Source: Candidatus Woesearchaeota archaeon (GTDB taxonomy: Archaea; Nanobdellota; Nanobdellia; Woesearchaeales; DSVV01). From it: a stretch of 64,000 nt of DNA. Location of the stretch: contig JABHXF010000034.1 of the NCBI GenBank assembly GCA_018657385.1, forward strand, positions 8,081 to 72,080, given 5' to 3'. Below, in pieces: positions 5,243 to 37,995 of the stretch (its first letter is position 1; every line of letters starts with the position of its first letter). The notes below the pieces were generated by a model, which searched no databases, was not told where the DNA came from, and saw nothing but the letters and a program-made list of their open reading frames with translations. Made by a program: the position numbers and the translations under genes.

Positions 5243-5363
5243 ACATTATAGTATATATGTCAGCAGACTATTTAAAGTTTTTGCTATTTTCTATATTAGA
5301 GTGGTAAAAGAAGATTTTGGTGGGATATTATTAAAAATAACAACAATGGTCAGTCTAAGTTTT

Positions 5364-5450
5364 AAATCCAACAATATGGCTGGATGAGCCGAAGGCGAAT
5401 AGGATATTTGCTTGCAAATGTCCGTCCGTGCCTGTGTTGTTGTTGGATTT
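5364..5450. repeat. structured intergenic repeat element, copy A. It has an 11-bp terminal inverted repeat AAATCCAACAA / TTGTTGGATTT that encloses the GC-rich hairpin core GGATATTTGCTTGCAAATGTCC. A second shared motif AAAAAGAGCCTGCCGGCCTGTTAAAAA lies at about 5487-5515.
   Basis: The same about 45-nt core plus the flanking CCAACAA/TTGTTGG arms recur at 7480-7614. It is GC-rich against the AT-rich background. Confidence 0.6.
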
Positions 5451-5542
5451 GTTATTAAGATATTAAAAAGAGAGAAGAATCAGAACAAAAAAGAGCCTGC
5501 CGGCCTGTTAAAAATTAAAAAAAATAAGAAAAAAAGAAAAAA

Positions 5543-7348
5543 CTAATTGCATGCATAGTTGTTTGGGTTGTAACAAATCGCTCCCTCTGGACATGTTAGT
5601 TCATAAACAGTTGGATAACCAGAACTCCATTTAGTACCCCATGAATATTCAGTACATGAATGTTGTTTATACTTAGGATTCCCATTATACACATTAGAAC
5701 AAATATATATTATATCACCCTCTTCACAATCATCATGACAATTACCATTATCAACAGAACAAATTTTAGGCATACCTGTTGGGGAAGACATTTTTGAACA
5801 CTCAACAATACTATTCATTTCTTCACCAGTACATGAATTAACTGACATATTGACTTGATCTAAGATCCCATCACCTGTTGCATCAATACATTTTGGTTCA
5901 CTTGTAGAAAGAGGCTTACAACAACCCTTATTTTCATCACAATCAATAGGTTCAAAGTTATATTGACCATCATAAGAAACTAAAAAGTCACCACAATAGT
6001 CTTCAGTATCATAAGTACCACCATTACAATTCCAATCCCAAAGTGACCCATATGCTGTTCCTTTCCAAGCTAATGAATTCCACTTAGAAATACATTCACC
6101 AGGTCCTGTAGGACTGAACTTACCAGGTGTACACTCAAATCCATCTAATGGTTCATTTTCTCCTGCTCCACCACCTGGTTGATTTAATGCCACATGTTGA
6201 CCAGCAGCATCTATAAAGAAATGTTGTGGATCAGCAAGATTATCCCAAGTAATCTTTGAAGGACAATCTGGATTAACTTCAGGTAAACTTTGTGCCATAG
6301 GACAAATATAAAATTCACTTGGCATTTTGAATGTTTTTGTTGCAGTACCTGGAACTTCTTCAATAGCTAAAACTTTGATTTGTTCACCATCAACTTCAAC
6401 TTCAACTCCTGTTATTCCCTGATCATTATTAAACTCAACAACAACTTCTTCCTCAGGACTTAACTCAATTTCAACTTCAACTTGATTTCCTTCTTCTGTA
6501 ACTTCAATTTCAGCTTCTTCTTCTTCACCATTTTCATTAACTACAACAATATCATCTTCTGTTATTGCAGGAGCAGTACAGCCCTTACCAAAACCTTCAA
6601 CACATACCTCAGGTGAATTACATTTTCCCCAAACTCCTTTTGCAGAAAGTGCACCATTTACACAAGAATAAACTCTAGGAGAACCACTAGCTGAACATTG
6701 ATTATAATCTTCATCACAAGCAACTTTACAATTTGCTTCTCCTGGTTCACCAACACAACTTCTGCTTAATCCATTGTAAGGATTTTTTTGAGCAGCACAA
6801 TTAGATTTTCCACCACCTTGTGCTTTATATAAATCATTACTATCACAATAAGGATATTCTTGTACCTCATCACTACCCATATTGACACATGCATCATTTA
6901 AACATCGATAATCAGCACCAGGATTATTGATATTAAGTTCGGCACAATTCTTTTGCCATCTTCCCACCTTACCATTATTCCTACAGAAGTATTCAAACAA
7001 ATAAGTTTTCCCACTGCTAAATGTATAACACTTATCTAATCTTGATTTTCCTTTATATGTAATTTTTCCTTTAATAAGCAATTGCTTTGGATCTTTTGTA
7101 GAATCTGCATCTTCATCATGACATTTACCTACAGTAAATGCTTGCCCAGATAAATCACCCGCAGCTTCATCATTATCAAATGGAATGTCTTCTTCTAATG
7201 CAAATTCTTCATCAGTAAGAATTTCTGCATCATCTCCAGATTCATCTGTAACTAATTTAGTACAACCATCAAACATTACAACTAAACCAAATAAAATCAT
7301 TAATGTTACTAATACTACTAAATACATAGAATGCTTATGTTTAACCAT
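5543..7348 (-). CDS. secreted or lipid-anchored cysteine-rich protein (601 aa, about 60 Cys, with a central acidic E/V-rich repeat region)
   Basis: N-terminal signal/TM MYLVVLVTLMILFGLVVMFDGC. There are many paired Cys and Gly/Asn-rich modules. Local GC (about 38-40%) is above the window average. The gene is flanked on both sides by the repeat element. Confidence 0.6.
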   Translation of the reverse strand: MVKHKHSMYLVVLVTLMILFGLVVMFDGCTKLVTDESGDDAEILTDEEFALEEDIPFDNDEAAGDLSGQAFTVGKCHDEDADSTKDPKQLLIKGKITYKGKSRLDKCYTFSSGKTYLFEYFCRNNGKVGRWQKNCAELNINNPGADYRCLNDACVNMGSDEVQEYPYCDSNDLYKAQGGGKSNCAAQKNPYNGLSRSCVGEPGEANCKVACDEDYNQCSASGSPRVYSCVNGALSAKGVWGKCNSPEVCVEGFGKGCTAPAITEDDIVVVNENGEEEEAEIEVTEEGNQVEVEIELSPEEEVVVEFNNDQGITGVEVEVDGEQIKVLAIEEVPGTATKTFKMPSEFYICPMAQSLPEVNPDCPSKITWDNLADPQHFFIDAAGQHVALNQPGGGAGENEPLDGFECTPGKFSPTGPGECISKWNSLAWKGTAYGSLWDWNCNGGTYDTEDYCGDFLVSYDGQYNFEPIDCDENKGCCKPLSTSEPKCIDATGDGILDQVNMSVNSCTGEEMNSIVECSKMSSPTGMPKICSVDNGNCHDDCEEGDIIYICSNVYNGNPKYKQHSCTEYSWGTKWSSGYPTVYELTCPEGAICYNPNNYACN

Positions 7349-7479
7349 CTTATCACCTTTTTTATTTTAATAATTATAGATTATAGTTAATCTAATGTTA
7401 ATTCTTATATGTTATTATATATAAATGTTACCATGAATTTAAAAAAATAAAAGATACTAAAATATTCAAGGAGAAAATT

Positions 7480-7614
7480 AAATCCAACAACATGGCTGGA
7501 TGAGCCTAAAGTGAATTGGACATTGGAATAAGAAAAAACAACTTGGCCAGGCGAGGCGTTAGCCGAGTAGGATATTTGCTTGCAAATGTCCGTCTGTGCC
7601 AGGGTTGTTGTTTT
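7480..7614. repeat. structured intergenic repeat element, copy B. It has the same core as 5364-5450 with an about 50-nt internal insertion and a degraded right arm. The motif AAAAAGAGCCTGCCGGCCTGTTAAAAA recurs at about 7676-7705.
   Basis: Direct sequence identity of AAATCCAACAAYATGGCTGGATGAGCC and TAGGATATTTGCTTGCAAATGTCCGTCYGTGCC with copy A. Confidence 0.6.
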
Positions 7615-7713
7615 TTCATATGTATCATTTAACCTAAAAAATTAAAACCCTTATGATTAAATTAAAAATCACAGCAAAAAGAGCCTGCCGGCCTGTTAAA
7701 AAAAAACAAAGAA

Positions 7714-9028: not shown

Positions 9029-9274
9029 TTAACAAGATTCTAAAGCACTAACGAGATTCCAAATTTGAGACCTTGTATAAGGTTCCATATTTGCATCATC
9101 ACCAATTTCTTCTAACTCATCTAAGGCTTTGTTAATCTTAATACTGATATCTTGTTTTTCTTGAAGAGCTTTCATAGCATTATCTATTCTAGCTTTAACA
9201 TTTCTTGGAACAACTTGATCATCTAAGAGTTCTTTCATTACATCAATGATGTTATTGATTTTTTCATCACTCAT
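9029..9274 (-). CDS. UPF0147-family small archaeal protein
   Basis: An 81 aa helical protein with ...VVPRNVKARIDNAMKAL..., at the 3' end of the rpl37ae operon. Confidence 0.45.
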   Translation of the reverse strand: MSDEKINNIIDVMKELLDDQVVPRNVKARIDNAMKALQEKQDISIKINKALDELEEIGDDANMEPYTRSQIWNLVSALESC

Positions 9275-9594
9275 TTTTTATCTGCCTTTTCCATTTCTTC
9301 CATTACTTCTTTTCTTAATGTTTCTGCAGTTTCCTTCATTGTTGTTTCTTGTTTTTCAAAAGTTTTGATTCTTAACTCTGTTCTTTCTTTCTTTTCTTTT
9401 AAATCTTTATTTAAATCTTCTTTAGAAACCTTAACCATAATATTTCCAACAATCTTATAAGCATCTTCTGTTTTTTCTAATTCTTCTAGTGCTGAATCAA
9501 TCTCAACAATTTGACCTTGAACTTGTTGTCTTTGAGAAAGAATTTGTTGTAAATTTTGTTCTATCATTTGTAATTTATTTATTTTTTCAGACAT
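9271..9594 (-). CDS. pfdB: prefoldin beta subunit
   Basis: A 107 aa coiled-coil protein with the central beta-hairpin region EDAYKIVGNIMVKVSKED. It overlaps the next gene by 4 nt. Confidence 0.85.
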   Translation of the reverse strand: MSEKINKLQMIEQNLQQILSQRQQVQGQIVEIDSALEELEKTEDAYKIVGNIMVKVSKEDLNKDLKEKKERTELRIKTFEKQETTMKETAETLRKEVMEEMEKADKK

Positions 9595-9606
9595 TTTTAC
9601 TCACCT

Positions 9607-9825
9607 TTAAGTTTTCTCATATACTGTAAAAAGTTTTGTAAGGTTATTCAAAGTAGCTCTTAAAGCAACAGAATCCTTTGCAATAATCTTAATTTTTAAT
9701 TTACCATCAAATTTTTGAATAGTAAATTCACTTCTATTTTTTTTGCTGTTAGATATCTCAGGCATCAAAGCTTTGTAAAGCTTTTCAACATCACCTTTAA
9801 TTACCAACTCGCCCTTGTAATCCAT
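9607..9825 (-). CDS. KEOPS Pcc1-like small protein (COG2892-like)
   Basis: A 72 aa protein. The position between rpoP and pfdB matches the conserved archaeal L37ae-RpoP-Pcc1-prefoldin arrangement. The sequence call itself is weak. Confidence 0.4.
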   Translation of the reverse strand: MDYKGELVIKGDVEKLYKALMPEISNSKKNRSEFTIQKFDGKLKIKIIAKDSVALRATLNNLTKLFTVYEKT

Positions 9826-9837
9826 TTTATTAAATAA

Positions 9838-9975
9838 TTATCTTGCCTTAACTTTTGTAATTGTAGTTCTTGGCTTAAATAACATTTTACTACCACAATA
9901 AGGACATCTAATTTTTTTACGATGATATTCTTCTGAAACTTTTTTGTTACATTCAAAACATTTGTATTCAACCAT
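9838..9975 (-). CDS. rpoP: DNA-directed RNA polymerase subunit P (Rpb12 homolog, 45 aa, CxxC...CxxC)
   Basis: The reverse translation is MVEYKCFECNKKVSEEYHRKKIRCPYCGSKMLFKPRTTITKVKAR. It falls below the ORF-track length cutoff. Confidence 0.8.
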   Translation of the reverse strand: MVEYKCFECNKKVSEEYHRKKIRCPYCGSKMLFKPRTTITKVKAR

Positions 9976-9986
9976 TGAAATGCCCC

Positions 9987-10502
9987 CTAAGATTGTAATT
10001 CATCAGATTCTTCTTCAGTATCTTCTGATTGTTCTTCTGCTGTTTCAGGTTCTTCTTTTGTTTCATCTTGATCTTCTTCAGCAGCTGATTCATCAACATC
10101 TTCTTCATCAGATTCAGTTGTTTCATCAGATTCAGTATCTTCTGATTCAGTAGTATCTTCTTGTTCTTCTTCTGATTTAAGCTCTTGGCCCTTTTCAGGA
10201 ACAACTGTTTGAGCTTCCATCTCTTCTTCTAAATCAAAATCATCTTCTATGATCATTTTTTCTTCAGTAGCATCAACTTTTCTCTTTGTCTTGCTAAGTG
10301 TATAAGCTTTACCTGTGAATTTTTTATCACACTTTCTACATTGCCAGATACCAGCAGATTCCCTTTTAACTTTAACATTCTTACAAAAAGGACATTTATG
10401 TAATGCTCTTTGAATTTGCTCGATCTTTCCGAACATTTTCTTTGGAGTTCTACCATATCTTGAACCAAACCTTCTTATTGATTTTAATTTTGCTTCTGCC
10501 AT
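9987..10502 (-). CDS. rpl37ae: ribosomal protein L37ae (eL43) with an unusual C-terminal acidic extension of about 90 aa
   Basis: The N-terminal about 80 aa are SIRRFGSRYGRTPKK...CPFCKNVKVKRESAGIWQCRKCDKKFTGKAYT, the zinc ribbon typical of L37ae. An uninterrupted E/D/T/S-rich tail follows. Confidence 0.8.
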   Translation of the reverse strand: MAEAKLKSIRRFGSRYGRTPKKMFGKIEQIQRALHKCPFCKNVKVKRESAGIWQCRKCDKKFTGKAYTLSKTKRKVDATEEKMIIEDDFDLEEEMEAQTVVPEKGQELKSEEEQEDTTESEDTESDETTESDEEDVDESAAEEDQDETKEEPETAEEQSEDTEEESDELQS

Positions 10503-10536: not shown

Positions 10537-10640
10537 TGGGGCTGCCCAGATTTGAACTGGGGTCCTCTGGCATCTTTGAGCAATGCAGATGCAAAGCCCT
10601 CCCAAACCAGAAAGGATAGACCAAACTACCCCACAGCCCC
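10537..10640 (-). tRNA. tRNA-Pro(TGG): tRNA-Pro (anticodon UGG) with an about 30-nt intron after position 37; the CCA end is not encoded
   Basis: The reverse strand reads GGGGCUG UG GGGU AGUUUGGUCU AUCC UU UCUGG UUUGGG [intron] G CCAGA GGAC CCCAG UUCAAAU CUGGG CAGCCCC A. There is a 7-bp acceptor stem, a CCCAG/CUGGG T-stem and a UUCAAAU T-loop. It resembles archaeal tRNA-Pro closely. Confidence 0.75.
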
Positions 10641-12956: not shown

Positions 12957-13850
12957 TCACTTTGTCAGCACAATTCCTTCATCCCATACTAATATTGTAT
13001 GTTCATGTTGACTTACCATGCCATCATTTACTTCAGGAAGAGGGGCATATTGCTGAATATTATTATTAAGTAAAAGTTGTCTTAAAGCTAATTTAACCCT
13101 ATTTAATGGAAATAATTTAACTAAATCCCTTGTTGAAAACGGCAATCCATTAAATTTCTTGATTTCTTCAAAAATCTTTCTTGCAAACATATCCCTAATA
13201 GGTTTATCTTGCTCTTGCATAAAAATATTAGCATGGCTTCCTTCTTTTATTCTTCCTGCCCCATCAGTTGCAAAAGGTTCAATAGCTATAATCATACCTT
13301 TCTCAAGTTGAGTTGTATCATTATTATCATAATTAGGTATAGATGGACTAGTATGAATTTCATATAAATCTAAACCATGGCCAGATAAATTTCTAATAGG
13401 TTGAAAACCATAGCTAGTAATAGTATCTTCAATTACTTTTCCTATTTCACAAAGCATTACACCAGGTTTGATAATTTTAATTGCATTTTCAACTGCTTTT
13501 TTGCTTGCTTCAACTAATTTATCATGTTTTCCAGATAAATCAAAAGTATAAGCAGTATCACCAACAGCTCCATTAAAACAAACACCAACATCAACTTTCA
13601 ATAGTTGTTTATCAAGAATTGTTTCATCTTCTGGAGTTGGAGTATAGTGGGCTGCGAAATTATCTGAGCTAAGATTAATTGGGAATGCTGGTGTTGCTCC
13701 AAGTTCTCTGATTTTATTTTCTATTTTTTCTCCAATTCCTAATAACTTAGCACCTGGTTTTATTATTGTTTTTGAATACTCTCTAACTTCACTTGCAATT
13801 TTACCTGCTTTAATCCAATCAGCATATTTAGTTTTTATTTCATCATTCAT
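12957..13850 (-). CDS. map: methionine aminopeptidase, type 2 (archaeal/eukaryotic type)
   Basis: HYTPTPEDETILDKQ...VDVGVCFNGAVGDTAYT...EPFATDG...HTILV. This is the pita-bread metal-ligand pattern of MetAP2. Confidence 0.85.
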   Translation of the reverse strand: MNDEIKTKYADWIKAGKIASEVREYSKTIIKPGAKLLGIGEKIENKIRELGATPAFPINLSSDNFAAHYTPTPEDETILDKQLLKVDVGVCFNGAVGDTAYTFDLSGKHDKLVEASKKAVENAIKIIKPGVMLCEIGKVIEDTITSYGFQPIRNLSGHGLDLYEIHTSPSIPNYDNNDTTQLEKGMIIAIEPFATDGAGRIKEGSHANIFMQEQDKPIRDMFARKIFEEIKKFNGLPFSTRDLVKLFPLNRVKLALRQLLLNNNIQQYAPLPEVNDGMVSQHEHTILVWDEGIVLTK

Positions 13851-13874
13851 TTTTTGTTCACCATAATTTATTGC

Positions 13875-14014
13875 GATAAAATCACCCCCTTGGCCAGTGG
13901 AGCTTACCTGACCTGATTAAAGGAAAATTGATTCATAAGGTCAGGTACCTTGATATCTTACGAATTAAAATGCAAGCTCCACAAAGACAAGGCCTTGGCG
14001 GCGATGATTTTATC
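13875..14014. ncRNA. candidate structured RNA, a long GC-rich imperfect hairpin of about 140 nt in the spoT-map intergenic region
   Basis: Nested helices are directly visible. GAUAAAAUCA pairs with UGAUUUUAUC at the termini. GUGGAGCUU (13898-13906) pairs with AAGCUCCAC (13973-13981). UACCUGACCU pairs with AGGUCAGGUA. The GC content is well above the surroundings. It could not be assigned to any known RNA family. Confidence 0.3.
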
Positions 14015-14028
14015 ATTAATAATATTTA

Positions 14029-15927
14029 TTATTTTGACTTTACTACATGAATAATCTCTTCCATCTTTTTAATTTCATTAATAACATCTTTTAATTTTAA
14101 TTCACTATCAACTTCAACACTTAATGTTGTTACAACTGATTCTTTTTTTGGTTTAGTATTTATATTTTTAAGATTTAGTTTGTATTCTGCAATTAAGTTT
14201 AAAACTTTTGCTAATGTTCCAACCTTATCCACCATAGTTAAAGCTAATTTTATAATAGGAAGTCTGTTTTCATCTTTCCATAAAACAGTTATTTCTTTTT
14301 TTGAATCCAAGGTATGAATATTAGGACAATCTTTTTTGTGAATAGTAATTTTCTTATCTTTAGTTAAAAACCCAACAATAGGATCTAACAATTTAGGAGA
14401 ACAACATTTAGATAGTTTAACAGGAGCTTTTTTACCAACAACATCAATTCGTTTTAAAATATCAATAGGCATTAATTCAATATCATCTTTTTTCTCGTGC
14501 TCAATTGTCATCCCCAATACTGATTTAATTTTACTTCTTGCTTTATTTGTTTTAACAAACTTTAACCATTGTCGAGAAGGTTTTGCATTTTTATTAATCA
14601 TAATTTCAATAATATCTCCTGATTCAAGTTTTGTTTCTAAAGGAACAATTTTATTATTGATTAATGCTTTTGAACATTTATTACCAATATTAGTATGAAC
14701 CATATATGCAAAATCAACAGTAGTAGAATCTTTTGGCAAAGTTATGGGGTCACCCTTTGGAGTAAACACAACCATCTCATCCTCAAATAAATCAATCTTT
14801 AATGTTTCAATAAATTCTGAAGACGTGCTTGCTAAATTACGCCACTCTAACATTTGTTTTAACCAAGAAATCTTTTTATCAAACAGTTGGTCCCTTTCTG
14901 TTCCTTGATAACGCCAATGAGCAGCAACACCATCTTCAGCCATGTGATGCATTTTTTCAGTTCTTATTTGGAACTCTAAAATCTTGCCACCCTCTGTTAT
15001 AACAGTCGTATGTAAACTTTGATAGCCATTTGATTTTGGTACAGAAATATAATCTTTAAATCGATGAGGAATAGGCTTATACATGTCATGAACTAAACCA
15101 ATAGCAGTATAACAATCAGGAATTGTTTTTGTAATAATTCTAACTGCAATTAAATCATAGATCTCATTAAAACCTACATTCTTTTTTTTCATTTTTTTGT
15201 AAATACTATAGAAATATTTTGCTCTTCCAGAAACTTTTGATTTTACATTCTTACTTTTTAATTGTTTTTTAATTTCTTTGATAATTTCAGCAGTATGTTT
15301 TTCTCTTTCATCTCTTTTTTCATCAATTTTGCTAGCTAAGAAACGATAAATTTCAGGTTCAAGATAACGTAAAGATAAATCTTCAAATTCTCCTTTTACA
15401 CTCCATATACCTAATTTATGGGCAATTGGTGCGTATATTTCCAAGGTTTGTTTTGCGATTCTTTTTTGTTTATCTACTGGAAGATATTTTAAAGTTCTTA
15501 TATTATGTAAACGATCTGCAAGTTTAATTAACATTACCCTCAGATCTTTAGCAGTTGCTAATAGTATTTTTCTTAAATTTTCATGAGTATAATCTTCTCT
15601 GCTACCAAAATGGATTTTATCAATTTTAGTAACACCTTCAACTAACCCAGCAATTTCATCTCCAAAAATTTGCTTTACTTTTTCAATCTTAATTTCAGTA
15701 TCTTCTACAATATCATGTAATAAAGCAGCACAGATAGATGCAGAATCTGCTTTTAAGCTTATCAAAATCTTGGCAACTTCAATAGGATGAGAGAAATATT
15801 CTTCACCACCAACTCTTTTTTGGCCTTTATGTGCCTTTTCTGCTAACACATAGGCTTTTTTGATTAGAGCTACATCTGCCTTAGGATTATATTTTAATAT
15901 TACTTTAACTAATTCTGATAATCTCAT
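14029..15927 (-). CDS. long RelA/SpoT homolog (RSH), a bifunctional (p)ppGpp synthetase/hydrolase with HD, synthetase, TGS and ACT domains
   Basis: HD motif HKGQKRVGGEEYFSHPIEVA...HDIVEDT. Synthetase motif DLIAVRIIT...RFKDYISVPKSNGYQSLHTTV. TGS-like region VFTPKGDPITLPKDSTTVDFAYMVHTNIG. A C-terminal ACT-like region is present. Confidence 0.85.
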   Translation of the reverse strand: MRLSELVKVILKYNPKADVALIKKAYVLAEKAHKGQKRVGGEEYFSHPIEVAKILISLKADSASICAALLHDIVEDTEIKIEKVKQIFGDEIAGLVEGVTKIDKIHFGSREDYTHENLRKILLATAKDLRVMLIKLADRLHNIRTLKYLPVDKQKRIAKQTLEIYAPIAHKLGIWSVKGEFEDLSLRYLEPEIYRFLASKIDEKRDEREKHTAEIIKEIKKQLKSKNVKSKVSGRAKYFYSIYKKMKKKNVGFNEIYDLIAVRIITKTIPDCYTAIGLVHDMYKPIPHRFKDYISVPKSNGYQSLHTTVITEGGKILEFQIRTEKMHHMAEDGVAAHWRYQGTERDQLFDKKISWLKQMLEWRNLASTSSEFIETLKIDLFEDEMVVFTPKGDPITLPKDSTTVDFAYMVHTNIGNKCSKALINNKIVPLETKLESGDIIEIMINKNAKPSRQWLKFVKTNKARSKIKSVLGMTIEHEKKDDIELMPIDILKRIDVVGKKAPVKLSKCCSPKLLDPIVGFLTKDKKITIHKKDCPNIHTLDSKKEITVLWKDENRLPIIKLALTMVDKVGTLAKVLNLIAEYKLNLKNINTKPKKESVVTTLSVEVDSELKLKDVINEIKKMEEIIHVVKSK

Positions 15928-16116
15928 GTAAATTAAGTATAAATCCTAAGTATATAAATCTTTTCACCAAAAACTTTATAAATGAAAATCACTAGGAGAC
16001 ATAAATAGTGTATTAGATATATTACTAAGTATATTATATTTAATAAAAAAAAGAGGCAACGTGAAATCAAAATTTTCACTGGTATCTTTTTTTGTAAACA
16101 AAAAAGAGGTGTAAAC

Positions 16117-16689
16117 ATGAAATTTTCAAAAAATGCGTCACTTAATCTATCAGTTAACGCAATTGTTGTGTTTGTATTAGCATTTTCTATGTTAGGTGTT
16201 GGTTTGTATGTTACTAACTTGATTAGAGAAAATGTTGGATCTGGAATAACATCTGTAGTTAATATTCAAGATCTAAAAAGTCCACCATCAGCAGAAGACC
16301 CAATTACAGTATCAAGAGAAGTAACTTTAAAGAAAGGTAAAGAAATTAAATTAGATATTGGTTATTATAATAAAGAAACAATAGCAGCAACACATGCTAG
16401 AATAGGAATCAGCAGTTGTATTACCCCAACAGGAGAAGAATTAGAAGGGATGGAAAATGGAGGTTCTGGAGAGGACACATTATTAGTTGTATCGCCTTTT
16501 GCATCAATGGTTGGAGCAAGTGAAGGGAAAGGATATAAAATTAAAATAGCAGATCAATCTGAAGCAGGAATTTTACCAACAGGAGCTTATGTTTGTACAA
16601 TGATTGTCTTTGACCCAGAAGGTGATGATAAGGGTTCAATAGACAATCCATATGAGGAAAAACAATTTTTCCTGAACATAGTATCATAA
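16117..16689 (+). CDS. putative pilin-like secreted protein with a class III (prepilin-type) signal peptide
   Basis: The N-terminus is MKFSKNA|SLNLSVNAIVVFVLAFSMLGVG, a charged head, a small residue and then a hydrophobic stretch. A strong GAGGTG RBS lies 7 nt upstream. Confidence 0.4.
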   Translation: MKFSKNASLNLSVNAIVVFVLAFSMLGVGLYVTNLIRENVGSGITSVVNIQDLKSPPSAEDPITVSREVTLKKGKEIKLDIGYYNKETIAATHARIGISSCITPTGEELEGMENGGSGEDTLLVVSPFASMVGASEGKGYKIKIADQSEAGILPTGAYVCTMIVFDPEGDDKGSIDNPYEEKQFFLNIVS

Positions 16690-16764
16690 AATAAAGTAGT
16701 ATTATTTTTTGTTTTTTAATTATATCAAAATAAAAAAATCAGTTAAAAAAAGAGGTGAATATTC

Positions 16765-17028
16765 ATGGCAAAAAGAAGAAAATCAGGAGCAAAAAAAGCT
16801 GGAAAATCTAAAGCTAAAAAACAACTAACAGAAGCACAAGAATTTGAGATTATGAAATTAGTATTAGACAAATTTTTATGGTTAGGATTTGCAATTATGG
16901 CAATTGGATTCTTTGTATCAGTATCTGGAGGATCATTGTTTAACGCAATAGCATATCTTGTTGCAGGAGCTTTAGTGTTAGTATTATTTATGATTTTAAT
17001 CGTCAAAGAATACGAAATCGTTAAATAA
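16765..17028 (+). CDS. small membrane protein with a Lys-rich N-terminus (87 aa)
   Basis: MAKRRKSGAKKAGKSKAKK... is followed by two TM helices. A GAGGTG RBS is present. Confidence 0.45.
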   Translation: MAKRRKSGAKKAGKSKAKKQLTEAQEFEIMKLVLDKFLWLGFAIMAIGFFVSVSGGSLFNAIAYLVAGALVLVLFMILIVKEYEIVK

Positions 17029-17051
17029 CTAAAAAAGAAAAAGGTGAAAAG

Positions 17052-17825
17052 ATGAAAAAGTTTTTTATATTTTTTATTATTATATTATTATGTTTCTTAG
17101 TAGGTTGTGGAGAAAAAGAATGCAAAAAAGATGAAGATTGCACAGCAATGAGTTGTTTTAGTGTAGCATGTGAAGAAAACCAATGTCTGAAAACACCACA
17201 ACCTGGTTGTTGTGGAAATCTAATGTGTGAAGATGATGAAAATTCATGCAGTTGTTCTAAAGATTGTAAAAAACCTAAGTGTGAAGGGAAAGTGGTAACT
17301 AAACAATCTGGAAGTAAAAAATATTATGCACAATATTTAGAATATATGTGTGTTGAAGATATTTGTATGCGAACTTTTGATGAAAGCGTTGTAAATAAAA
17401 TCCCTTTATTAAGTGAAAAGAAAGTTAACAACATGGATCTTGAGATTGGTGCAACATTTAATAAACCATTTGATTTAAGCAAAGATAAAATAATGGTTAC
17501 TATTACATTAAAAGACTTTGATGATAGTAAAGTTAAAATGCCATTTAAAATCAAAAAAATAAAAGTTATGAGTGGAGACATATTATATGGAGATATTAAT
17601 GTTAATAAAGAATTATTACAAGTTGGCTCTGGAATAAAAGAGTTTGTACAATTAACATTTAAACCTGAAGAATTAGAAAAAGAACAAAAACTAGAACTTA
17701 GAATTGATTATGAAGTAACTAAAGTAAATAATAAAGGAGATGAATTACTAAGAGATGATTTTAGTGAAACATTTTCACAAAAATTATTTTTAATTAATAC
17801 TGGATTGGCAGAACTAGAAGAGTAA
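17052..17825 (+). CDS. putative lipoprotein with a Cys-rich N-terminal module
   Basis: Signal plus lipobox MKKFFIFFIIILLCFLVGCG, followed by CKKDEDCTAMSCFSVACEENQC... Confidence 0.5.
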   Translation: MKKFFIFFIIILLCFLVGCGEKECKKDEDCTAMSCFSVACEENQCLKTPQPGCCGNLMCEDDENSCSCSKDCKKPKCEGKVVTKQSGSKKYYAQYLEYMCVEDICMRTFDESVVNKIPLLSEKKVNNMDLEIGATFNKPFDLSKDKIMVTITLKDFDDSKVKMPFKIKKIKVMSGDILYGDINVNKELLQVGSGIKEFVQLTFKPEELEKEQKLELRIDYEVTKVNNKGDELLRDDFSETFSQKLFLINTGLAELEE

Positions 17826-17862
17826 ATGTACTTATATATTAGGTACAAATGCATCGATTATA

Positions 17863-18534
17863 TTGAAAAAACAGAAATCATGTGAAACACAAAAGATGGC
17901 TAAAAGAATATACAAAAACAAAAAAGGTTTTGAGCTTAGTATTAATTTCATTGTTATGGTCATATTATCTTTAGTTATGTTGGGTGTTGGTTTTTTCTTT
18001 GCCAAGAATATTTTCTTTCATACAACAGAAATTGGAGAGCAATTGGATTATCAAACCAAACAACAGCTTGAATCAAAACTAAGAGATCCGTCTGCATTAG
18101 TGGCAATTGGAGTTAACAAAAAGTTAATTAAAAGAAACAATCAGGAAACATTTGGAGTAGGAGTTGCCAATAGAGATAAAGAAGAAGGATATTTTTTTCT
18201 AGAAGTTGAATGTAAAATTGCACAAATAAAAGATGAGAATGGTGATGAAACAAAAGATACTACTAGCTGCCCTGGTGACACAGAAAAATTTTGCTGTAAT
18301 GAATGGATTCAAAGTAAAATTTCAGGAAATAAACATGAAATAGATATTGGTGTATTAGAACCAAATGAATTTGAAGTAGCAACTGCATTCTTTAACATTC
18401 ATAAAAAAGCAGAACCAGGAGAATATGTTTATAATGTCCAAGTTAGAAGAAAAAAAGTAGGTAATAGTGGAACTGGTATTGGACAACCAACCAATTATGA
18501 TTCTGTGAAAAAGATATATGTTACTATACCTTAA
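17863..18534 (+). CDS. putative type IV pilin-like protein (class III signal peptide KKG|FELSINFIVMVILSLVML)
   Basis: A prepilin-like cleavage motif K-G|F-E-L precedes about 20 hydrophobic residues. The true start may be the internal MAKRIY. Confidence 0.5.
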   Translation: MKKQKSCETQKMAKRIYKNKKGFELSINFIVMVILSLVMLGVGFFFAKNIFFHTTEIGEQLDYQTKQQLESKLRDPSALVAIGVNKKLIKRNNQETFGVGVANRDKEEGYFFLEVECKIAQIKDENGDETKDTTSCPGDTEKFCCNEWIQSKISGNKHEIDIGVLEPNEFEVATAFFNIHKKAEPGEYVYNVQVRRKKVGNSGTGIGQPTNYDSVKKIYVTIP

Positions 18535-18543
18535 TTTAATTTG

Positions 18544-19287
18544 TTATTTACTATTCTTAATTATTTCTGTAAATAATTGTGGATCTAAACTTGCACCACC
18601 AATTAAAAAACCATTGATATCTTTTTCTTTAATTAATTCTGCAGCATTATCAGACTTAACACTCCCACCATAAAGTAATTTTAGTTGCCTAATAGTTGTT
18701 TGAGAATACATGTCTGTTAAAAATTCACGAATAAAGGCATGTGCTTCTTGAGCTTGTTCAGGTGTTGCTGTTTTTCCAGTACCAATTGCCCAAACAGGTT
18801 CATAAGCAACCATAACATTTTTAATTTGGTTTTCAGAAACATTCTTCAAACAAGCTTTTAATTGTGTTTCTAAAACTGAATCTGTTTTTTTCTTTTTTCT
18901 TTCATCTTCTGTTTCACCAACACATAAAATAGGCTTTAATCCGTGGCTAAGAGCAGATAAAACTTTCTTATTAATAAGTTGATTTGGTTCTTTAAAGATA
19001 TGTCTCCTCTCAGAATGGCCAATTAATACAAATTCACAAAACTCTTTAGCCATTAATGGTGAGATTTCCCCAGTAAATGCGCCCTTATCTTCAAAATACA
19101 TATTTTGAGCACATAATTTAATTTTATCATCCTTAATTTTAGATATTTCACTTAATGTTGTAAAAGGTGGAGAGATAATAATTTCATCATCTCCAAATTC
19201 AGAGACATTATTATTTAAATCGTTGATAAAAGCAATAGCCTCTTCAACAGATTTATTCATTTTCCAATTAGCAAAAATTATGTTCAT
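18544..19287 (-). CDS. tpiA: triosephosphate isomerase, bacterial/eukaryotic-type (247 aa)
   Basis: FANWKMN near the N-terminus and VAYEPVWAIGTGKTAT. Archaeal-type TIMs are about 225 aa and carry INFKTY/INYKTY instead. Confidence 0.8.
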   Translation of the reverse strand: MNIIFANWKMNKSVEEAIAFINDLNNNVSEFGDDEIIISPPFTTLSEISKIKDDKIKLCAQNMYFEDKGAFTGEISPLMAKEFCEFVLIGHSERRHIFKEPNQLINKKVLSALSHGLKPILCVGETEDERKKKKTDSVLETQLKACLKNVSENQIKNVMVAYEPVWAIGTGKTATPEQAQEAHAFIREFLTDMYSQTTIRQLKLLYGGSVKSDNAAELIKEKDINGFLIGGASLDPQLFTEIIKNSK

Positions 19288-20599: not shown

Positions 20600-20959
20600 A
20601 TGGAACTAAAACAAGTAATTTTAGTAAGGGCAGATCTGAAGATGTCAAAAGGTAAGATTGCAGCACAATCAGCACATGCTAGTGTTGAATGTGTTATGAA
20701 GGCAATGAAATCTAAAACAAAGGAAAAGCTAGTTAAAGAATGGCGTAGTGAAGGTATGATGAAGATTGTAGTAAAAGTTAGTTCTGAGAAAGAGTTGTAC
20801 AAATACATGCAAGAAGCTAAAGACCAAGGAATGATTACATCTATAATAACAGATGCTGGACATACATTTGTTGCCCCTGGCACAGTTACATGTGGTTGTA
20901 TAGGTCCTGTTGAGATAGAAGAAGTTGATGAAATTACTGGTGAATTAAAGATTCTTTAA
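20600..20959 (+). CDS. pth2: peptidyl-tRNA hydrolase, archaeal Pth2 type
   Basis: KQVILVRADLKMSKGKIAAQSAHASV...ITDAGHTFVAPGTVTCGCIGP. Confidence 0.9.
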   Translation: MELKQVILVRADLKMSKGKIAAQSAHASVECVMKAMKSKTKEKLVKEWRSEGMMKIVVKVSSEKELYKYMQEAKDQGMITSIITDAGHTFVAPGTVTCGCIGPVEIEEVDEITGELKIL

Positions 20960-21971: not shown

Positions 21972-22418
21972 ATGGCTGAAAAGAAGAAAGTTATGATAGT
22001 TGATGATGAGTTCACGATAAGAGAATTAGTAGCTTTAACATTAGAACCTGATTTTGAGATTATTAAAGCGGAATCAGGAGAAGAAGCATTAGAAAAAATT
22101 AAACATAACAATCCTGATTTAATCATATTAGATATAATGATGCCAAATATGAATGGATACCAAGTCTGCAAAATCTTAAGAGCAGATAAGAATACAAGTA
22201 ATACCCCTATAATCATGCTAACAGCAAAACATCAAGTAGAAGATGTTAAAAGAGCCATAGAAACAGGAGCAGATGAGTATATAACTAAACCATTTGAACC
22301 TGATTTATTAAGAAAAAGGATTAATGAATACTTTGGAGATAAGAAAATAGAGAGAAAATTATTTCAATATGGAAAAAGCATCCATTATATTAAAGGTAGA
22401 GAAGACAATATTTCTTAA
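21972..22418 (+). CDS. stand-alone response regulator receiver (CheY-like REC)
   Basis: KKVMIVDDEFTIREL...DLIILDIMMPNMNGYQV...LTAK...GADEYITKPF. Confidence 0.85.
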   Translation: MAEKKKVMIVDDEFTIRELVALTLEPDFEIIKAESGEEALEKIKHNNPDLIILDIMMPNMNGYQVCKILRADKNTSNTPIIMLTAKHQVEDVKRAIETGADEYITKPFEPDLLRKRINEYFGDKKIERKLFQYGKSIHYIKGREDNIS

Positions 22419-23789: not shown

Positions 23790-25541
23790 ATGACTGATAA
23801 AGACAAAAACAAGAATAAGAATCAAAACAAGGATGAAAAATCTAAAACATCCAAGAGAAGAGATAAATCTAAAGTTGAACATAATCATTGGGCTGACCAA
23901 ATTGCTTCAGAAGTTAAGAAAAAAGTTGATGAAAACCCACAATTAAAGAAAGTAGTTAAAGAAATTGGATATTATTTAGTATATGATGAAAAAACCCCTT
24001 CTGGTACTATCCATGTTGGAAGTGGTAGAGGATGGGTTATACATGATGCAATTGCAAAAGCAATGCGTAAAGCAGGAATGAAAGCTAAATTTATATTAAG
24101 CAACGATGATATAGATCCATATGATAAACCAAATAAAGAATTAGATGAATCATGGAATAAATATATTGGAATGCCCTTTCGTAACATTCCATCCCCCGTA
24201 GAAGGTTATGAAAATTTTGCTGAATACTATTTCATGATGTGTGTAGAGAAGTTTGAAGAGCTTGGTATAGAAGCAGAAGTTGAAAGTACAGGAGAACAAT
24301 ATGAAAAAGGTGTTTTTAATAAAGCAATTAAAAAAGTTCTTGATAATTATGAAAAAGTACAGCAAACATATATTGACATGTATGGAGACGATGTTGAAGC
24401 TGGGAAAAAGATACCATTTAATATTATATGTGAAAAATGTGGTAAAATTGCCACAACTTTAGCAGTGAAATGGGATACAAAAAAAGAATTACTAAATTAT
24501 GAATGTAAAAAAGGTGAAAGTGTAGTAACCTGGGCATCAGGCTGTGGACATAAAGGTCAAATTAGCCCATATAATGGTAATGGTAAATTCCCATGGAAAG
24601 TTGAATGGCCAGCTAAATGGATTAGTAAAGGAGTTATGTGTGAGTTTGCAGGAAAAGATCATTTTACCAAAGGTGGTTCAAGAAGTTTTGGTGTTAAATT
24701 AAGCAATGAATTATTTGATTTTATGCCACCATATCCTTCAAATAGATTTATGACAGGCAAAGGTTATGAATTTTTTCAAATTGGTGGGAAGAAAATGTCA
24801 ACTTCTAAAGGAAGAGGGGTTTCTTTTGTTGAGATGACTAAAATTTTGCCAGCTAACCTTATTAGATTTTTATTAATTAAACCAAGACCAAATTCAGTAA
24901 TTGATTTTGACCCATATGACGATAACAATATTACTTTCTTATATGATAGATATGATAAAGCTGAAAGGATTTATTTTGATGAAGAAAAAGCAGATGAAAA
25001 AGAAAAGAAAATACAATCAAGAATTTATGAATTAAGTCATGTTGGGGAAATACCTAAGAAAATGCCCATTCAAATCCCATTAAAATTTGCAGCGATTGTA
25101 ATTCAAATTGCAATGAATGATGAAGAAAAAGCAATTGAGATTTTGCAAAATATGAAGCATTTACCAAAAAAATTAGAAGGAATAGGTAGACATAATGTAT
25201 TAGAAAGACTTAATAATGCAAAAAGGTGGATTAATAAGTTTGCTAGTGATAATTATAAGTTTAAATTAAATGAGAAAATAAACCAAAAGGAACTTAAACT
25301 TGACCATAAAGTTAAAAAAGCATTACAATTAATTGTAAAGAGATTAGAAGAAAAAACTTGGCAAGATAAAGAATTACATGATGAATTTTATAATATATGC
25401 AAAGAATTAGAATTAGAAACAAAAGAATTCTTTAAAGGAACATATGTGTTATTGATAGGCAAAGAAAAAGGTCCATTACTAGCTAAATTCATATTAGCAG
25501 TTGGCTTAGATAAGTTTAGAGAATTAGTTGAACAGTTATAA
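23790..25541 (+). CDS. lysK: lysyl-tRNA synthetase, class I (archaeal type), with a K/N/D-rich N-terminal extension
   Basis: HIGH-like TIHVGSGRG and KMSKS-like KMSTSKG motifs. The overall length is that of class I LysRS. Confidence 0.85.
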   Translation: MTDKDKNKNKNQNKDEKSKTSKRRDKSKVEHNHWADQIASEVKKKVDENPQLKKVVKEIGYYLVYDEKTPSGTIHVGSGRGWVIHDAIAKAMRKAGMKAKFILSNDDIDPYDKPNKELDESWNKYIGMPFRNIPSPVEGYENFAEYYFMMCVEKFEELGIEAEVESTGEQYEKGVFNKAIKKVLDNYEKVQQTYIDMYGDDVEAGKKIPFNIICEKCGKIATTLAVKWDTKKELLNYECKKGESVVTWASGCGHKGQISPYNGNGKFPWKVEWPAKWISKGVMCEFAGKDHFTKGGSRSFGVKLSNELFDFMPPYPSNRFMTGKGYEFFQIGGKKMSTSKGRGVSFVEMTKILPANLIRFLLIKPRPNSVIDFDPYDDNNITFLYDRYDKAERIYFDEEKADEKEKKIQSRIYELSHVGEIPKKMPIQIPLKFAAIVIQIAMNDEEKAIEILQNMKHLPKKLEGIGRHNVLERLNNAKRWINKFASDNYKFKLNEKINQKELKLDHKVKKALQLIVKRLEEKTWQDKELHDEFYNICKELELETKEFFKGTYVLLIGKEKGPLLAKFILAVGLDKFRELVEQL

Positions 25542-25578: not shown

Positions 25579-27954
25579 TTAATCAAATTCAATCTTCTTT
25601 TTAATTGGTAATTCAAATATAAAACTACTTCCTTTGTTAATTTCACTTTCAACATATATTTTTCCTTTATGTGCGTCTACAATATGTTTTGATATTGGAA
25701 GTCCTAATCCAGTTCCACCATATTGTCTAGTCATTGATGCATCTACTTGATAAAACTTATCAAATAGTCTGGGAATAACTTCCTTAGGAACACCAATACC
25801 AGTATCTTTAACCGTTGTTTTAATAAAATTATCCATTAATTCAATAATAACATAAATATTGCCATCTTTTGGGGTAAACTTAATTGCATTGCCAATTAAA
25901 TTAAAAAATATTTGTTTAATTAAATCTTGACTTGCACTAATTTTAGGAATATCTTTTTTTACATCAAGATGTATTTTAATGTCTTTATCATCAGCTAAAG
26001 TCGCAAGTGTTTTTATAACATCCCCTGCCACTATAATAATATCCATCTTTTCTTTCTTAAATTTAACTTTTCCTTTTTCAAGCTTTGCAAGGTCCAAAAC
26101 ATCATTAATTAATCTGCTTAATCTATCAGATTCTTCGATAATAATATTTAAACATTGCATTTGATTTTCTGGAAGCATCCCTAGTTTACCACCTAATAAT
26201 AGCTTAGTATAACCCTTAATACTAGTTAATGGTGTTCTTAATTCATGGCTTACATTACTAACAAATTCAGATTTCAATCTATCCATTCTTTCTAACTCTC
26301 TATTTTTTTCTACTAATTCTTTTGTGGCCATAAAAACTTCATTTTTTAATGTCTCGTTAAATAAACTAATTTCATTATATAATTTAGAGTTTTCAATAGC
26401 AATTGCAATATGGTTAGTTAAAATCTCTAATGGTTGTTTAAATTTTTCAAAGTTATTAAATTTAACACTATCTAAATTTAACACACCAATTACTTTTCCG
26501 GCTTTCATTAAAGGAATTACTGCTTCAGAAACAGTAGCTCTATTAACTTCAATATATCTTTTATCTTTTCTAACATCTGGAACAATCAAGGGTTTACCTT
26601 GTTTCGCTACCCACCCAGATAAACCTTCATCAATTTTGATTCTAACATTCTCTGCTTTTTCTATGGGATAACCTTTAATTAATTTCATATCTAAATAATC
26701 CCCCTTAACTAATAATAAAAAACCAGAATCAGAATTAGTAAATTCCATTGTTCTATCCATAATAATATTCAATAAGTTATCTAAATCAAGTTGTGCATTA
26801 ATAGTTTGACTTATTTCTAATAGGTTTGATAAAACATGACGTTCTTTTTTTATACTTGTATAAAATTCACTATTTCTAATACTCATTGCTGCTTGATTTG
26901 CTAATGTTTTCAATAGATCTAATTCATCTTTGTTATATCTTCTTAGCTTCTTAGTATAAATATTAATAGTCCCTAAGGATTTATCTTTTACAATAAGAGG
27001 AATTGTTAATAAACTCATTAATTTTACAGATTTTGCAAAACTTGGTCTAGCATATAATGGTTCCTTTAAAACTTCTTGAATATAAACTGGTTGTCTTGTT
27101 TTAACTGCTAATCCTGCAACACTATCATCTACAGGAATTGGACCATGATTAAAATATTCTTCTGATGAACTATAAGTTGATTTAGGAATTAAAAATTGAT
27201 TAGATTTATCAAGTAATGTAATAGTACAAGAATCAGAGTTAAGTAATTGAATAATTTTTACAATAATTAAACTTAAAATTTCATCTAAATCTAATGTTTT
27301 AGTAAGAGAAGAAGATATGTCATACATTGCTGTTAATTTCTTTAATCTTATACGATCCTCTCTATGAAGAACAGTATTATCAATTGCAAATGCAACTTGA
27401 TTTGCAAAAGGAAACAGATTATAAAGATCTTCTTTGATTAAAGGATTTTCTGAATATTTATTATCAATACTAATCATACCAATTACCCTTGTACCACTTA
27501 ATAATGGAAGGCTTGCAGATTCATTTACATCTTCTTTTTTAAGAATTTTAACAAATTTTGAAAATTGTGATGTTTTTAATATAATTGGCTCCTTTTTTGT
27601 AAAGCAATGGTATACTTTTTTGTGTACTTGAGAAATATCTAATTTAATATTTTTCATTGATATATCAGGCATGTGAGAAGATTTTGCCCCCATTAATAAT
27701 TTTTTTTGTTTGTCAAAAAGGTAAATTCTAACACGATCATAACCCCATAATTTAAATGCCTTAATTGTAAGCTCTAATATTTCATTAACATCCTCAGTGC
27801 ACTGGATAGAATTACTTATATCATGTAAACTTCTTAAGAACTGATTTTGGATTTTTAATTTTTTCTCAAAAGATAATTCTTCAGTTTCTTCTATTTTTCC
27901 TGATTTTTCTATCTCTTCTGTTTCTTCTTTTGTTTTCTTAACCATGTTTATCAC
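25579..27954 (-). CDS. sensor histidine kinase with multiple GAF domains plus HisKA and HATPase_c
   Basis: H-box VSHELRTPLTSIKGY, N-box FFNLIGNAIKFT, and G-boxes DTGIGVP and GGTGLGL. The N-terminus has about 450 aa of GAF-like repeats. Confidence 0.85.
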   Translation of the reverse strand: MINMVKKTKEETEEIEKSGKIEETEELSFEKKLKIQNQFLRSLHDISNSIQCTEDVNEILELTIKAFKLWGYDRVRIYLFDKQKKLLMGAKSSHMPDISMKNIKLDISQVHKKVYHCFTKKEPIILKTSQFSKFVKILKKEDVNESASLPLLSGTRVIGMISIDNKYSENPLIKEDLYNLFPFANQVAFAIDNTVLHREDRIRLKKLTAMYDISSSLTKTLDLDEILSLIIVKIIQLLNSDSCTITLLDKSNQFLIPKSTYSSSEEYFNHGPIPVDDSVAGLAVKTRQPVYIQEVLKEPLYARPSFAKSVKLMSLLTIPLIVKDKSLGTINIYTKKLRRYNKDELDLLKTLANQAAMSIRNSEFYTSIKKERHVLSNLLEISQTINAQLDLDNLLNIIMDRTMEFTNSDSGFLLLVKGDYLDMKLIKGYPIEKAENVRIKIDEGLSGWVAKQGKPLIVPDVRKDKRYIEVNRATVSEAVIPLMKAGKVIGVLNLDSVKFNNFEKFKQPLEILTNHIAIAIENSKLYNEISLFNETLKNEVFMATKELVEKNRELERMDRLKSEFVSNVSHELRTPLTSIKGYTKLLLGGKLGMLPENQMQCLNIIIEESDRLSRLINDVLDLAKLEKGKVKFKKEKMDIIIVAGDVIKTLATLADDKDIKIHLDVKKDIPKISASQDLIKQIFFNLIGNAIKFTPKDGNIYVIIELMDNFIKTTVKDTGIGVPKEVIPRLFDKFYQVDASMTRQYGGTGLGLPISKHIVDAHKGKIYVESEINKGSSFIFELPIKKKIEFD

Positions 27955-27995
27955 TTCATAACTATTTTCAGATTATTGTGTTTAGACTATTATGT

Positions 27996-29567: not shown

Positions 29568-29614
29568 TTCAAATGTAACTCCCTTAAGGATTAAATGATA
29601 TTAACAGAGAGTAA

Positions 29615-30628: not shown

Positions 30629-30756
30629 CTGCTTTATGAATAATTATTTATCTACCATTAGTTATAGTATCTCATTTAAGGATTTGTTATAACTTCAAAT
30701 TTAATATCAGATTAATATTTAGTTTCTAAATTAATTTAAACACTTAAAAAATAAAA

Positions 30757-31137
30757 TTATTTGGACATGTTTAAGTTTAATTTTATTCTCTTAACTAATT
30801 CCATTGGATCAAATGGCTTTGTCATGTAATCATCAGCACCAACATCAATTGCATGTAATTTATCATTCATTTGACTTTTTGCACTTAATATCAAAACTGG
30901 AACATTCCTTGTTTTAGGATTTTCTCTTAATGCCTTACATAATTCATAACCATTGACACCAGGCATCATTAGATCTAAAACAACTAAGTCTGGTATGCTT
31001 TTATCAATATGCATTAGTGCTTCTCTTCCAGAATAAGCACCAGTTACATTATATTTATCTTTGTTCAAGCTAAGCTTAATTAGATTTACAATGTGTGGTT
31101 CATCATCCACAATAAGTACATTTTTTCTTTCTTCCAT
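30757..31137 (-). CDS. stand-alone response regulator receiver (REC), paralog of the REC in 29615..30628
   Basis: VLIVDDEPHIVNLIK...DLVVLDLMMPGVNGYEL...GADDYMTKPF. Confidence 0.85.
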   Translation of the reverse strand: MEERKNVLIVDDEPHIVNLIKLSLNKDKYNVTGAYSGREALMHIDKSIPDLVVLDLMMPGVNGYELCKALRENPKTRNVPVLILSAKSQMNDKLHAIDVGADDYMTKPFDPMELVKRIKLNLNMSK

Positions 31138-37922: not shown

Positions 37923-37995
37923 TTGAAGAATTCCCTTAGACTTTTAAGAGAGATCATAAAAACCCAAATAGTTGATGATATAGGGTATCCAAAAA

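Follow-up and report, generated by a model that had tools for sequence, protein, structure and literature searches.

Does an archaeon carry a genuine long enzyme of (p)ppGpp metabolism, and could it work as its bacterial counterparts do? The question is raised by a gene at positions 14029-15927 (minus strand) of a 64,000-nucleotide stretch of DNA, hereafter the window, from a Candidatus Woesearchaeota archaeon (assembly GCA_018657385.1, contig JABHXF010000034.1). An initial annotation had read this gene as a full-length RelA/SpoT homologue (long RSH) with hydrolase (HD), synthetase (SYNTH), TGS and ACT domains. It had placed the gene among archaeal markers, noted the AT-rich composition of the host and proposed an old acquisition; a chimeric contig or missing catalytic residues were named as ways in which this reading could fail. 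We consider it likely that the gene encodes a genuine Rel-type long RSH of a Woesearchaeota-type archaeon, derived from a bacterial gene that was gained once and early and then inherited vertically, and that its product is bifunctional, as predicted from its residues, and switched through its C-terminal region.

Domain content and conserved residues of the archaeal RSH

The open reading frame (ORF) is intact and encodes 632 aa, which score 694.5 bits against the NCBIfam model TIGR00691 (spoT_relA; cutoff 499.2). Pfam recovered all four domains of the initial annotation on the minus strand: HD at residues 25-175 (15403-15855; HD_4, E 4.9e-50), SYNTH at residues 234-343 (14899-15228; RelA_SpoT, E 5.9e-41), TGS at residues 386-443 (14599-14772; E 7.2e-19) and ACT/RRM at residues 560-628 (14044-14250; ACT_4, E 4.9e-10; ACT, E 3.8e-8). 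A zinc-finger/ribosome-intersubunit (RIS) domain was placed at residues 494-545 (14293-14448, minus strand) by alignment to the zinc finger of mycobacterial Rel and to residues 594-652 of E. coli RelA. The corresponding Pfam family, PF28438 (RelA_RIS), appears in the precomputed annotation of an 88%-identical homologue (P0001) and of other homologues.

The closest solved structure is that of Bacillus subtilis Rel (6yxa, E 1e-152), with a continuous alignment over residues 13-473; across this part, which holds HD, SYNTH and TGS, the two proteins are ~48-50% identical. An AlphaFold2 model of the archaeal protein reached a mean predicted local distance difference test (pLDDT) score of 82.3 and a predicted template modelling (TM) score, pTM, of 0.74, and its ACT domain adopts the beta-alpha-beta-beta-alpha-beta fold (pLDDT ~82-90). 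Foldseek searches with this model returned long RSHs only, with RelA on the 70S ribosome, B. subtilis Rel and full-length SpoT at the top. The N-terminal half (HD and SYNTH) superimposes on Thermus thermophilus Rel 6s2u with a TM score of 0.85; among full-length structures, the closest is the compact full-length SpoT 7qpr (TM 0.52).

Catalytic positions were assigned by a gap-free alignment to B. subtilis Rel (offset +6). All hydrolase residues are present: R38, H47, H71-D72, E75-D76, D138 and N142, corresponding to R44, H53, H77-D78, E81-D82, D144 and N148 of Rel. So are those of the synthetase (G234-R235-x-K237, D258, Y302, Q303, H306, E318 and Q320), in which D258 and E318 are the counterparts of Rel D264 and E324. 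The charge motif at residues 289-292 reads RFKD, the RXKD type of bifunctional enzymes, and not the acidic EXDD. In the regulatory half, TGS H411 aligns with the histidine that stacks on the CCA end of tRNA (H420 in B. subtilis, H432 in E. coli RelA; 6yxa alignment), whose substitution abolishes activation (PMC7797070), and the zinc-finger residues are C508, C509, H530 and C534.

We then asked how these residues fare in 62 members of the archaeal clade, whose identity to the query is 55-88% and whose alignment columns average 60% identity. R38, H47, H71, D72, E75, D138 and N142 of the hydrolase were invariant in 62/62, as were G234, R235, K237, D258, K291, D292, Y302, Q303, H306, E318 and Q320 of the synthetase, and H411, C508, C509, H530 and C534 of the sensing modules. 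Variation was limited to HD position 76 (D in 44, E in 18) and SYNTH position 289 (R in 46, K in 14). The catalytic residues thus passed the check proposed by the initial annotation, almost all of them being invariant. Such invariance against a background of 60% identity points to purifying selection acting on the synthetase and hydrolase activities as well as on the sensing modules, and the archaeal RSH is predicted to be bifunctional, carrying out both (p)ppGpp synthesis and hydrolysis.

Comparison with characterized enzymes places the protein with Rel. It shares the HD and SYNTH catalytic residues, RXKD, the CCA-sensing histidine of TGS, the zinc finger and ACT with B. subtilis Rel (6yxa/6htq) and RelSeq of Streptococcus equisimilis (1vj7), but differs from Firmicutes Rel in lacking ~70-90 residues (the helical core and Linker Helix 2), in the absence of the bacterial apt-rel-dtd context and in its archaeal host. 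Domain order and fold are those of E. coli RelA (5iqr, 5kpv) and SpoT, to which RIS and ACT can be aligned; yet E. coli RelA is a monofunctional synthetase with a degenerate hydrolase and an EXDD-type motif, whereas the archaeal protein has an intact HD domain and RFKD. It scores below the cutoffs of the E. coli-type equivalogs for RelA (NF008124, 425.9 bits against 728) and SpoT (NF008303, 565.9 bits against 947). With five domains over 632 aa, it does not belong to the small alarmone synthetases or hydrolases (SAS/SAH) either (SAS model NF053588, 35 bits against a cutoff of 320).

The intergenic region upstream of the gene (15928-16116, minus strand) also lies upstream of a divergent gene. 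It holds TTTATATA at 15951-15958, that is, -31 to -24 from the RSH ATG, the position expected of an archaeal TATA box before a leaderless or short-leader mRNA. As evidence for a promoter element this is weak, since A/T runs of this kind abound at a genomic GC of 27%.

A short tether in place of the helical core

The initial description of the protein as full-length stands for the intact ORF and for the HD, SYNTH, TGS, RIS and ACT domains, but not for the region between TGS and the zinc finger, where ~70-90 residues of the helical domain are missing. The remnant of the alpha-helical (AH) domain occupies residues 444-493 (14449-14598, minus strand), as delimited by a break in the alignment to PDB sequences, by the spacing described below and by residue-level alignment. 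Against the 797-aa mycobacterial Rel, the alignment breaks after TGS: query residue 470 pairs with 546, and residue 503 with 661.

To place this break among other long RSHs, the residues separating the end of TGS from the CC motif of the zinc finger were counted in 314 proteins. The resulting histogram is bimodal: the spacing is 64 residues in the query and 63-69 in twelve archaeon-labelled proteins, compared with 125-160 in bacterial long RSHs (147 in E. coli RelA, 126 in SpoT). A search of representatives at 50% identity gave the same division, with proteins of ~630-675 aa aligning in one stretch and those of ~705-800 aa in two. At the residue level, archaeal RSHs retain only the start of Linker Helix 1 (PSRQWLKFVKTNKARSKIKSVL, conserved), followed by a spacer that runs directly to the first strand of RIS. 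Neither the AH core nor Linker Helix 2 is present (terms after Loveland et al. 2016, PMC4974054); in the work of these authors, Linker Helix 2 packs against ACT. The spacer measures 18-29 residues, with a mean conservation of 0.32 in the 62 clade members, and its residues 477-488 have a pLDDT < 50. By alignment and model, a disordered tether of ~20 residues stands in place of the AH core in the archaeal clade. Four of the five regulatory elements remain, TGS, RIS and ACT being present and AH reduced. Mean conservation is 0.65-0.81 in HD, SYNTH, TGS and RIS and 0.46 in ACT, the lowest value after that of the spacer.

The idea that a short helical region is unique to archaea was rejected. Intermediate spacings of 76-98 residues, reduced but less extreme than in the archaeal RSH, occur in three bacterial long RSHs (P0129, P0134, P0154) and in two from Parcubacteria/Nealsonbacteria (L024, L027). 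These genes have bacterial neighborhoods (HU, SecDF, Der, L27, sigma-70, flagellar genes, apt-rel-dtd). In the Parcubacteria proteins, the ACT domain that the archaeal RSH has is missing as well, and none of the proteins groups robustly with the archaeal clade (31% at most by neighbor joining). Judged from the sequences compared, the most extreme AH shortening is a signature of the archaeal RSH clade.

Could the protein be a decaying relic or pseudo-enzyme, an ORF that was kept while (p)ppGpp is neither made nor degraded? Its loss of a domain would fit this, as would the reductive nature of DPANN genomes and the failure to detect any alarmone in archaea (PMC8646023, PMC10249747). Nevertheless, the ORF is intact, 62 homologues at 55-88% identity share at least 25 invariant functional residues, and the borders of the deletion are clean and conserved. 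Because the deletion is common to the whole clade, it must be old and tolerated. We regard decay as very improbable.

A second alternative is harder to dismiss. The enzyme could be active without being controlled by the ribosome or deacylated tRNA, and be regulated through an ACT ligand, a partner protein or its expression level; in one variant, it might serve mainly as a housekeeping (p)ppGpp hydrolase with a weak synthetase, as SpoT does. The clade-wide deletion of the AH core and Linker Helix 2 is what such a scenario would lead one to expect, given that B. subtilis Rel depends on its helical domain to bind tRNA stably and specifically (PMC7797070). The low conservation of ACT (mean 0.46) and the resemblance of the model to compact SpoT 7qpr point the same way. 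However, H411, the zinc-finger residues and the remnant of Linker Helix 1 are invariant or highly conserved, which would be hard to explain if sensing had been abandoned, and the score against the SpoT equivalog NF008303 (566 bits) is well short of its cutoff. On balance, control away from the ribosome seems unlikely.

Archaeal residence of the gene

Long RSHs of the Rel type are otherwise a hallmark of bacteria, and the window holds many bacterial-type genes (two-component systems, a triosephosphate isomerase of bacterial size and glycan-biosynthesis genes), as might be expected if a bacterial rel had been mis-joined to archaeal sequence during assembly or binning. The surroundings of the gene argue otherwise. 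As the initial annotation had stated, an archaeal ribosomal-protein/RNA polymerase operon lies a few kilobases away: 3.5 kb from the RSH, at 9029-10502 (minus strand), Pfam identified L37ae (9987-10502), an RPAB4/RpoP zinc ribbon (9838-9975; 23.9 bits, just below the cutoff of 24), Pcc1 (9607-9825), prefoldin beta (9271-9594) and UPF0147 (9029-9274). The intron-containing tRNA mentioned there was recovered too. It is a tRNA-Pro(TGG) at 10537-10640 (minus strand) with a 29-nt intron, found only when ARAGORN was run with intron detection (-i), and a standard 75-nt tRNA-Pro is recognized once the intron is removed. No tRNA or other RNA came up with default ARAGORN or with Rfam, whether at the gathering threshold or at E values of up to 1 over 1-22 kb. 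This tRNA is the sole one in the 64 kb, and its GC content of ~0.54 contrasts with a background of 0.27. Pfam further identified methionine aminopeptidase (MetAP, M24, 297 aa; 12957-13850, minus strand) immediately downstream of the RSH and, on the plus strand, PTH2 (20600-20959) and a class I LysRS (23790-25541).

The composition of the gene is indeed host-like. GC is uniform across the window (~0.25-0.32); that of the RSH gene is 0.283, for a gene mean of 0.280 (z 0.12), its GC at third codon positions (GC3) has a z of 0.21, and its codon usage correlates at 0.946 with that of the other window genes (rank 20/46).

Gene order tells the same story in other assemblies. A JGI contig of 167 kb, with an RSH of 88% identity, matches the order LysRS-I, U32, response regulator, MscS, PTH2, Band7, triosephosphate isomerase, four unknown ORFs, RSH, MetAP and L37ae. 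Four loci from Woesearchaeota metagenome-assembled genomes (MAGs; L001-L004, from different projects, RSH 74-78% identical) have retained RSH-MetAP on one flank and the four unknown ORFs on the opposite one, and two of them (L001 and L004) also keep the order triosephosphate isomerase-Band7 and L37ae-RpoP-Pcc1-prefoldin beta. MetAP adjoins the RSH in all five and lies within ~1 kb of it in distant homologues. These distant homologues (58-60% identity) sit in contigs of 857 kb and 543 kb next to L21e, Rpb4, S6e, NOG1, Kae1 and Rpr2; a further homologue, on a 64-kb contig, lies beside Kae1 and STT3.

A mis-joined bacterial gene is therefore scarcely credible: both flanks recur in five independent assemblies from different projects, homologues are embedded in archaeal contigs of 543 and 857 kb, the RSH cannot be told from its neighbors by GC, GC3 or codon usage, and the short-linker form is specific to the archaeal clade. 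From gene order and composition, we conclude that the contig is not chimeric and that the RSH is genuinely chromosomal in a Woesearchaeota-type (DPANN) archaeon.

The gap that separates the stop of the RSH (14029) from the start of MetAP (13850) has a feature of its own. It contains a 146-nt spacer (13870-14015, minus strand) with a GC of 0.42, compared with 0.27 for the genome, that folds as one long imperfect hairpin (minimum free energy -51.1 kcal/mol, z -5.46, matched by 0/200 shuffles). The spacer is single-copy in the window and has no Rfam match, and the insert is absent from the closest relatives, where the RSH-MetAP gap is 15-28 nt. It could be an inserted structured RNA, a remnant resembling a miniature inverted-repeat transposable element, or a terminator or processing element.

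On the other side, divergent from the RSH, four ORFs without a Pfam match (190, 87, 257 and 223 aa) occupy 16117-18534 (plus strand) and are conserved next to the RSH in L001-L004 and the JGI contig. At the N-termini of two of them (16117-16689 and 17863-18534), a hydrophobic helix comes after a short stretch of charged residues, an arrangement that looks by eye like an archaeal class III (type IV pilin-like) signal peptide; another (17052-17825) is Cys-rich with a lipobox-like N-terminus.

Distribution and origin

Searches returned at least 8000 matches. The best 120 of these are 55-88% identical and mostly full-length (~630-690 aa), and where they carry a name, it is Candidatus Woesearchaeota, Nanoarchaeia, Nanoarchaeota or Nanobdellota. 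The best homologue reaches 88% identity (JGI) and the best from a Woesearchaeota MAG 78%. Twelve GTDB species representatives carry the RSH. The archaeal gene agrees in identity (55-88%), length (~630-660 aa), domain set and short TGS-to-zinc-finger spacing with the RelA/SpoT proteins of Woesearchaeota and Nanoarchaeota (NCBI, JGI; Li et al. 2021); the closest of these also share its gene neighborhood, and nothing essential differs.

The phylogeny against bacterial Rel, RelA and SpoT that the initial annotation had called for was built by neighbor joining (NJ) with 500 bootstraps, from 20 archaeal and 40 bacterial sequences whose domain of origin was known from labels or context. The 20 archaeal RSHs formed one clade in 99.8% of the bootstraps. 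GC contents of the archaeal members range from 0.30 to 0.51, so that shared composition alone does not explain the clade. The sister group received a support of at most 31%. The top-scoring bacterial long forms belong to Negativicutes, Clostridia, Deltaproteobacteria and Chrysiogenetes, and this spread over four groups means that the bacterial donor cannot be named. The apparent closeness of Clostridia was not used, as it may stem from the AT/Lys-rich peptide patterns that retrieved the loci.

The old acquisition that had been proposed for this gene fits both its host-like composition and the single archaeal clade. The simplest reading of the tree and alignments would be a single ancient transfer from a bacterium to an archaeon, a deletion of the helical core and then vertical descent.

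Three GTDB species representatives whose NCBI titles read 'uncultured Methanosarcinales archaeon' (L005, L008, L010) carry short-form RSHs inside the Woesearchaeota/Nanoarchaeota clade, and one of them (L008) groups tightly with bins labelled Woesearchaeota or Nanoarchaeota (L006, L007, L009). Their Methanosarcinales labels are probably wrong, and these sequences are unlikely to be evidence for Rel in methanogens.

Other features of the window

Two direct copies of a GC-rich structured element (5362-5522 and 7478-7710) are 87-91% identical, one of them with an internal insertion of ~50 nt, and each ends in a small palindrome, AAAAAGAGCCTGCCGGCCTGTTAAAAA. They flank a 601-aa orphan ORF (5543-7348, minus strand), each just upstream of a minus-strand gene without a Pfam match. 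Their fold z-scores lie between -2.5 and -5.3, according to the strand considered, and Rfam gave no match. The repeat may be a cis-regulatory element or a non-coding RNA.

L37ae (9987-10502, minus strand; 171 aa) carries its domain at residues 4-75, followed by an acidic low-complexity C-terminal tail of ~95 residues; a tail of similar length is found in the relative L004. The triosephosphate isomerase at 18544-19287 (minus strand) has 247 aa and a full-length match to PF00121 (314 bits), and it is conserved in the syntenic relatives. We take its length to be closer to that of bacterial and eukaryotic enzymes than to that of the shorter, typical archaeal ones, and it may be another bacterial acquisition.

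Bacterial-type two-component genes are dense at 21972-22418 and 25579-31137, with two histidine kinases (791 aa with a triple GAF, 523 aa with HAMP-PAS) and three receiver-domain proteins. At 37248-41470 (plus strand), genes for a DUF4956 protein, a 913-aa CotH-domain protein and a VTC-domain protein adjoin one another. The VTC domain is presumably linked to polyphosphate metabolism. In E. coli, (p)ppGpp controls polyphosphate levels, and the proximity of this gene to an alarmone enzyme would be worth attention if the polyphosphate link holds. Finally, a 21-kb same-strand biosynthesis cluster of the glycan and nonulosonic-acid type (42386-63328, plus strand) includes several fusions (an 899-aa CTP-transferase/NeuB/SAF/PIG-L protein, a formyltransferase/UDP-GlcNAc 2-epimerase and a 5-FTHF cyclo-ligase/FolD), together with ACPS, an AMP-binding enzyme, LuxE and LuxC acyl-protein synthetase/reductase and a DegT aminotransferase.

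Discussion

The presence of RSHs in Woesearchaeota is already published and annotated, and our locus joins a known group. A 2011 census recorded only the SAS and SAH classes in archaea, with no long RSH (PMC3153485), and the supplement of an RSH census preprint contains no DPANN or archaeal taxon names. Work and reviews on archaeal second messengers from 2021 and 2023 describe (p)ppGpp as undetected, its enzymes as rare and the alarmone as apparently unimportant in archaea (PMC8646023, PMC10249747). According to Li et al. 2021, RelA/SpoT occurs in 69.0% of the genomes of Diapherotrites, 41.7% of those of Woesearchaeota, 21.3% of those of Pacearchaeota and 19.0% of those of Nanoarchaeota, and is predicted to be of bacterial origin (PMC8407392); NCBI and JGI label close homologues as bifunctional (p)ppGpp synthetase/hydrolase. 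The view in the initial annotation that long RSHs are largely absent from archaea is thus outdated for DPANN. In a limited search of the literature, we found no residue-level analysis of archaeal long RSHs, and no description of the shortened architecture, although a search of this extent is no proof of absence. What our comparisons add is the indication of a single, old and selectively maintained acquisition, the predicted bifunctionality, and the apparently clade-defining loss of the tRNA-contacting helical core.

How would such an enzyme work? We infer enzymatic activity, the activating signal and the downstream alarmone physiology by analogy with characterized bacterial proteins. (p)ppGpp would be made by the SYNTH domain, through transfer of pyrophosphate from ATP to GDP or GTP, and hydrolysed by the Mn-dependent HD domain. 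The C-terminal region, consisting of TGS, tether, zinc-finger/RIS and ACT, would switch the two activities reciprocally, as it does in Rel, RelA and SpoT. The likeliest input would be the classical one, in which the invariant TGS histidine reads the CCA end of uncharged tRNA with RIS and ACT anchored to the ribosome close to the A-site finger. With a short flexible tether in place of the core of the helical domain, this would amount to a minimal sensing architecture.

Several points weigh against a genuine, C-terminally switched Rel of single origin. To our knowledge, the bacterial RNA polymerase/DksA target does not exist in archaea, and archaeal (p)ppGpp targets must therefore differ; candidates by analogy would be GTPases of translation and ribosome assembly, and purine-salvage enzymes. 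The phylogeny was built by NJ alone, and in a larger, mostly unlabelled NJ tree of 214 sequences, the same archaeal clade received 34% support. Our limited literature search found no experimental work on archaeal long RSHs. Lastly, the AH core and Linker Helix 2 are lost, and in B. subtilis Rel, a TGS-Helical fragment binds tRNA stably while TGS alone does not (PMC7797070), so that tRNA/ribosome sensing of the bacterial style may be weakened or replaced. The archaeal Rel may bind tRNA more weakly, lean more on the ribosome, or use another input.

Taken with these points, a Rel-type enzyme gained once, kept under selection and switched through its C-terminal region remains the reading that we consider likely. 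A large, conserved and vertically inherited clade of apparently functional Rel in Woesearchaeota-type DPANN archaea offers a concrete protein with which to ask whether archaea use (p)ppGpp. Having lost the AH core throughout, the clade provides a natural experiment that asks how much of the tRNA/ribosome-sensing apparatus of bacteria is required, and the loss makes the regulatory mechanism of archaeal Rel a testable question. We tentatively suggest, as an attractive possibility rather than our expectation, that Woesearchaeota Rel is a naturally minimized stringent factor, re-fitted to archaeal ribosomes and mounting a true alarmone response to starvation for amino acids or tRNA charging. If so, it would be the first (p)ppGpp response system in the domain Archaea, acting on targets other than RNA polymerase/DksA.

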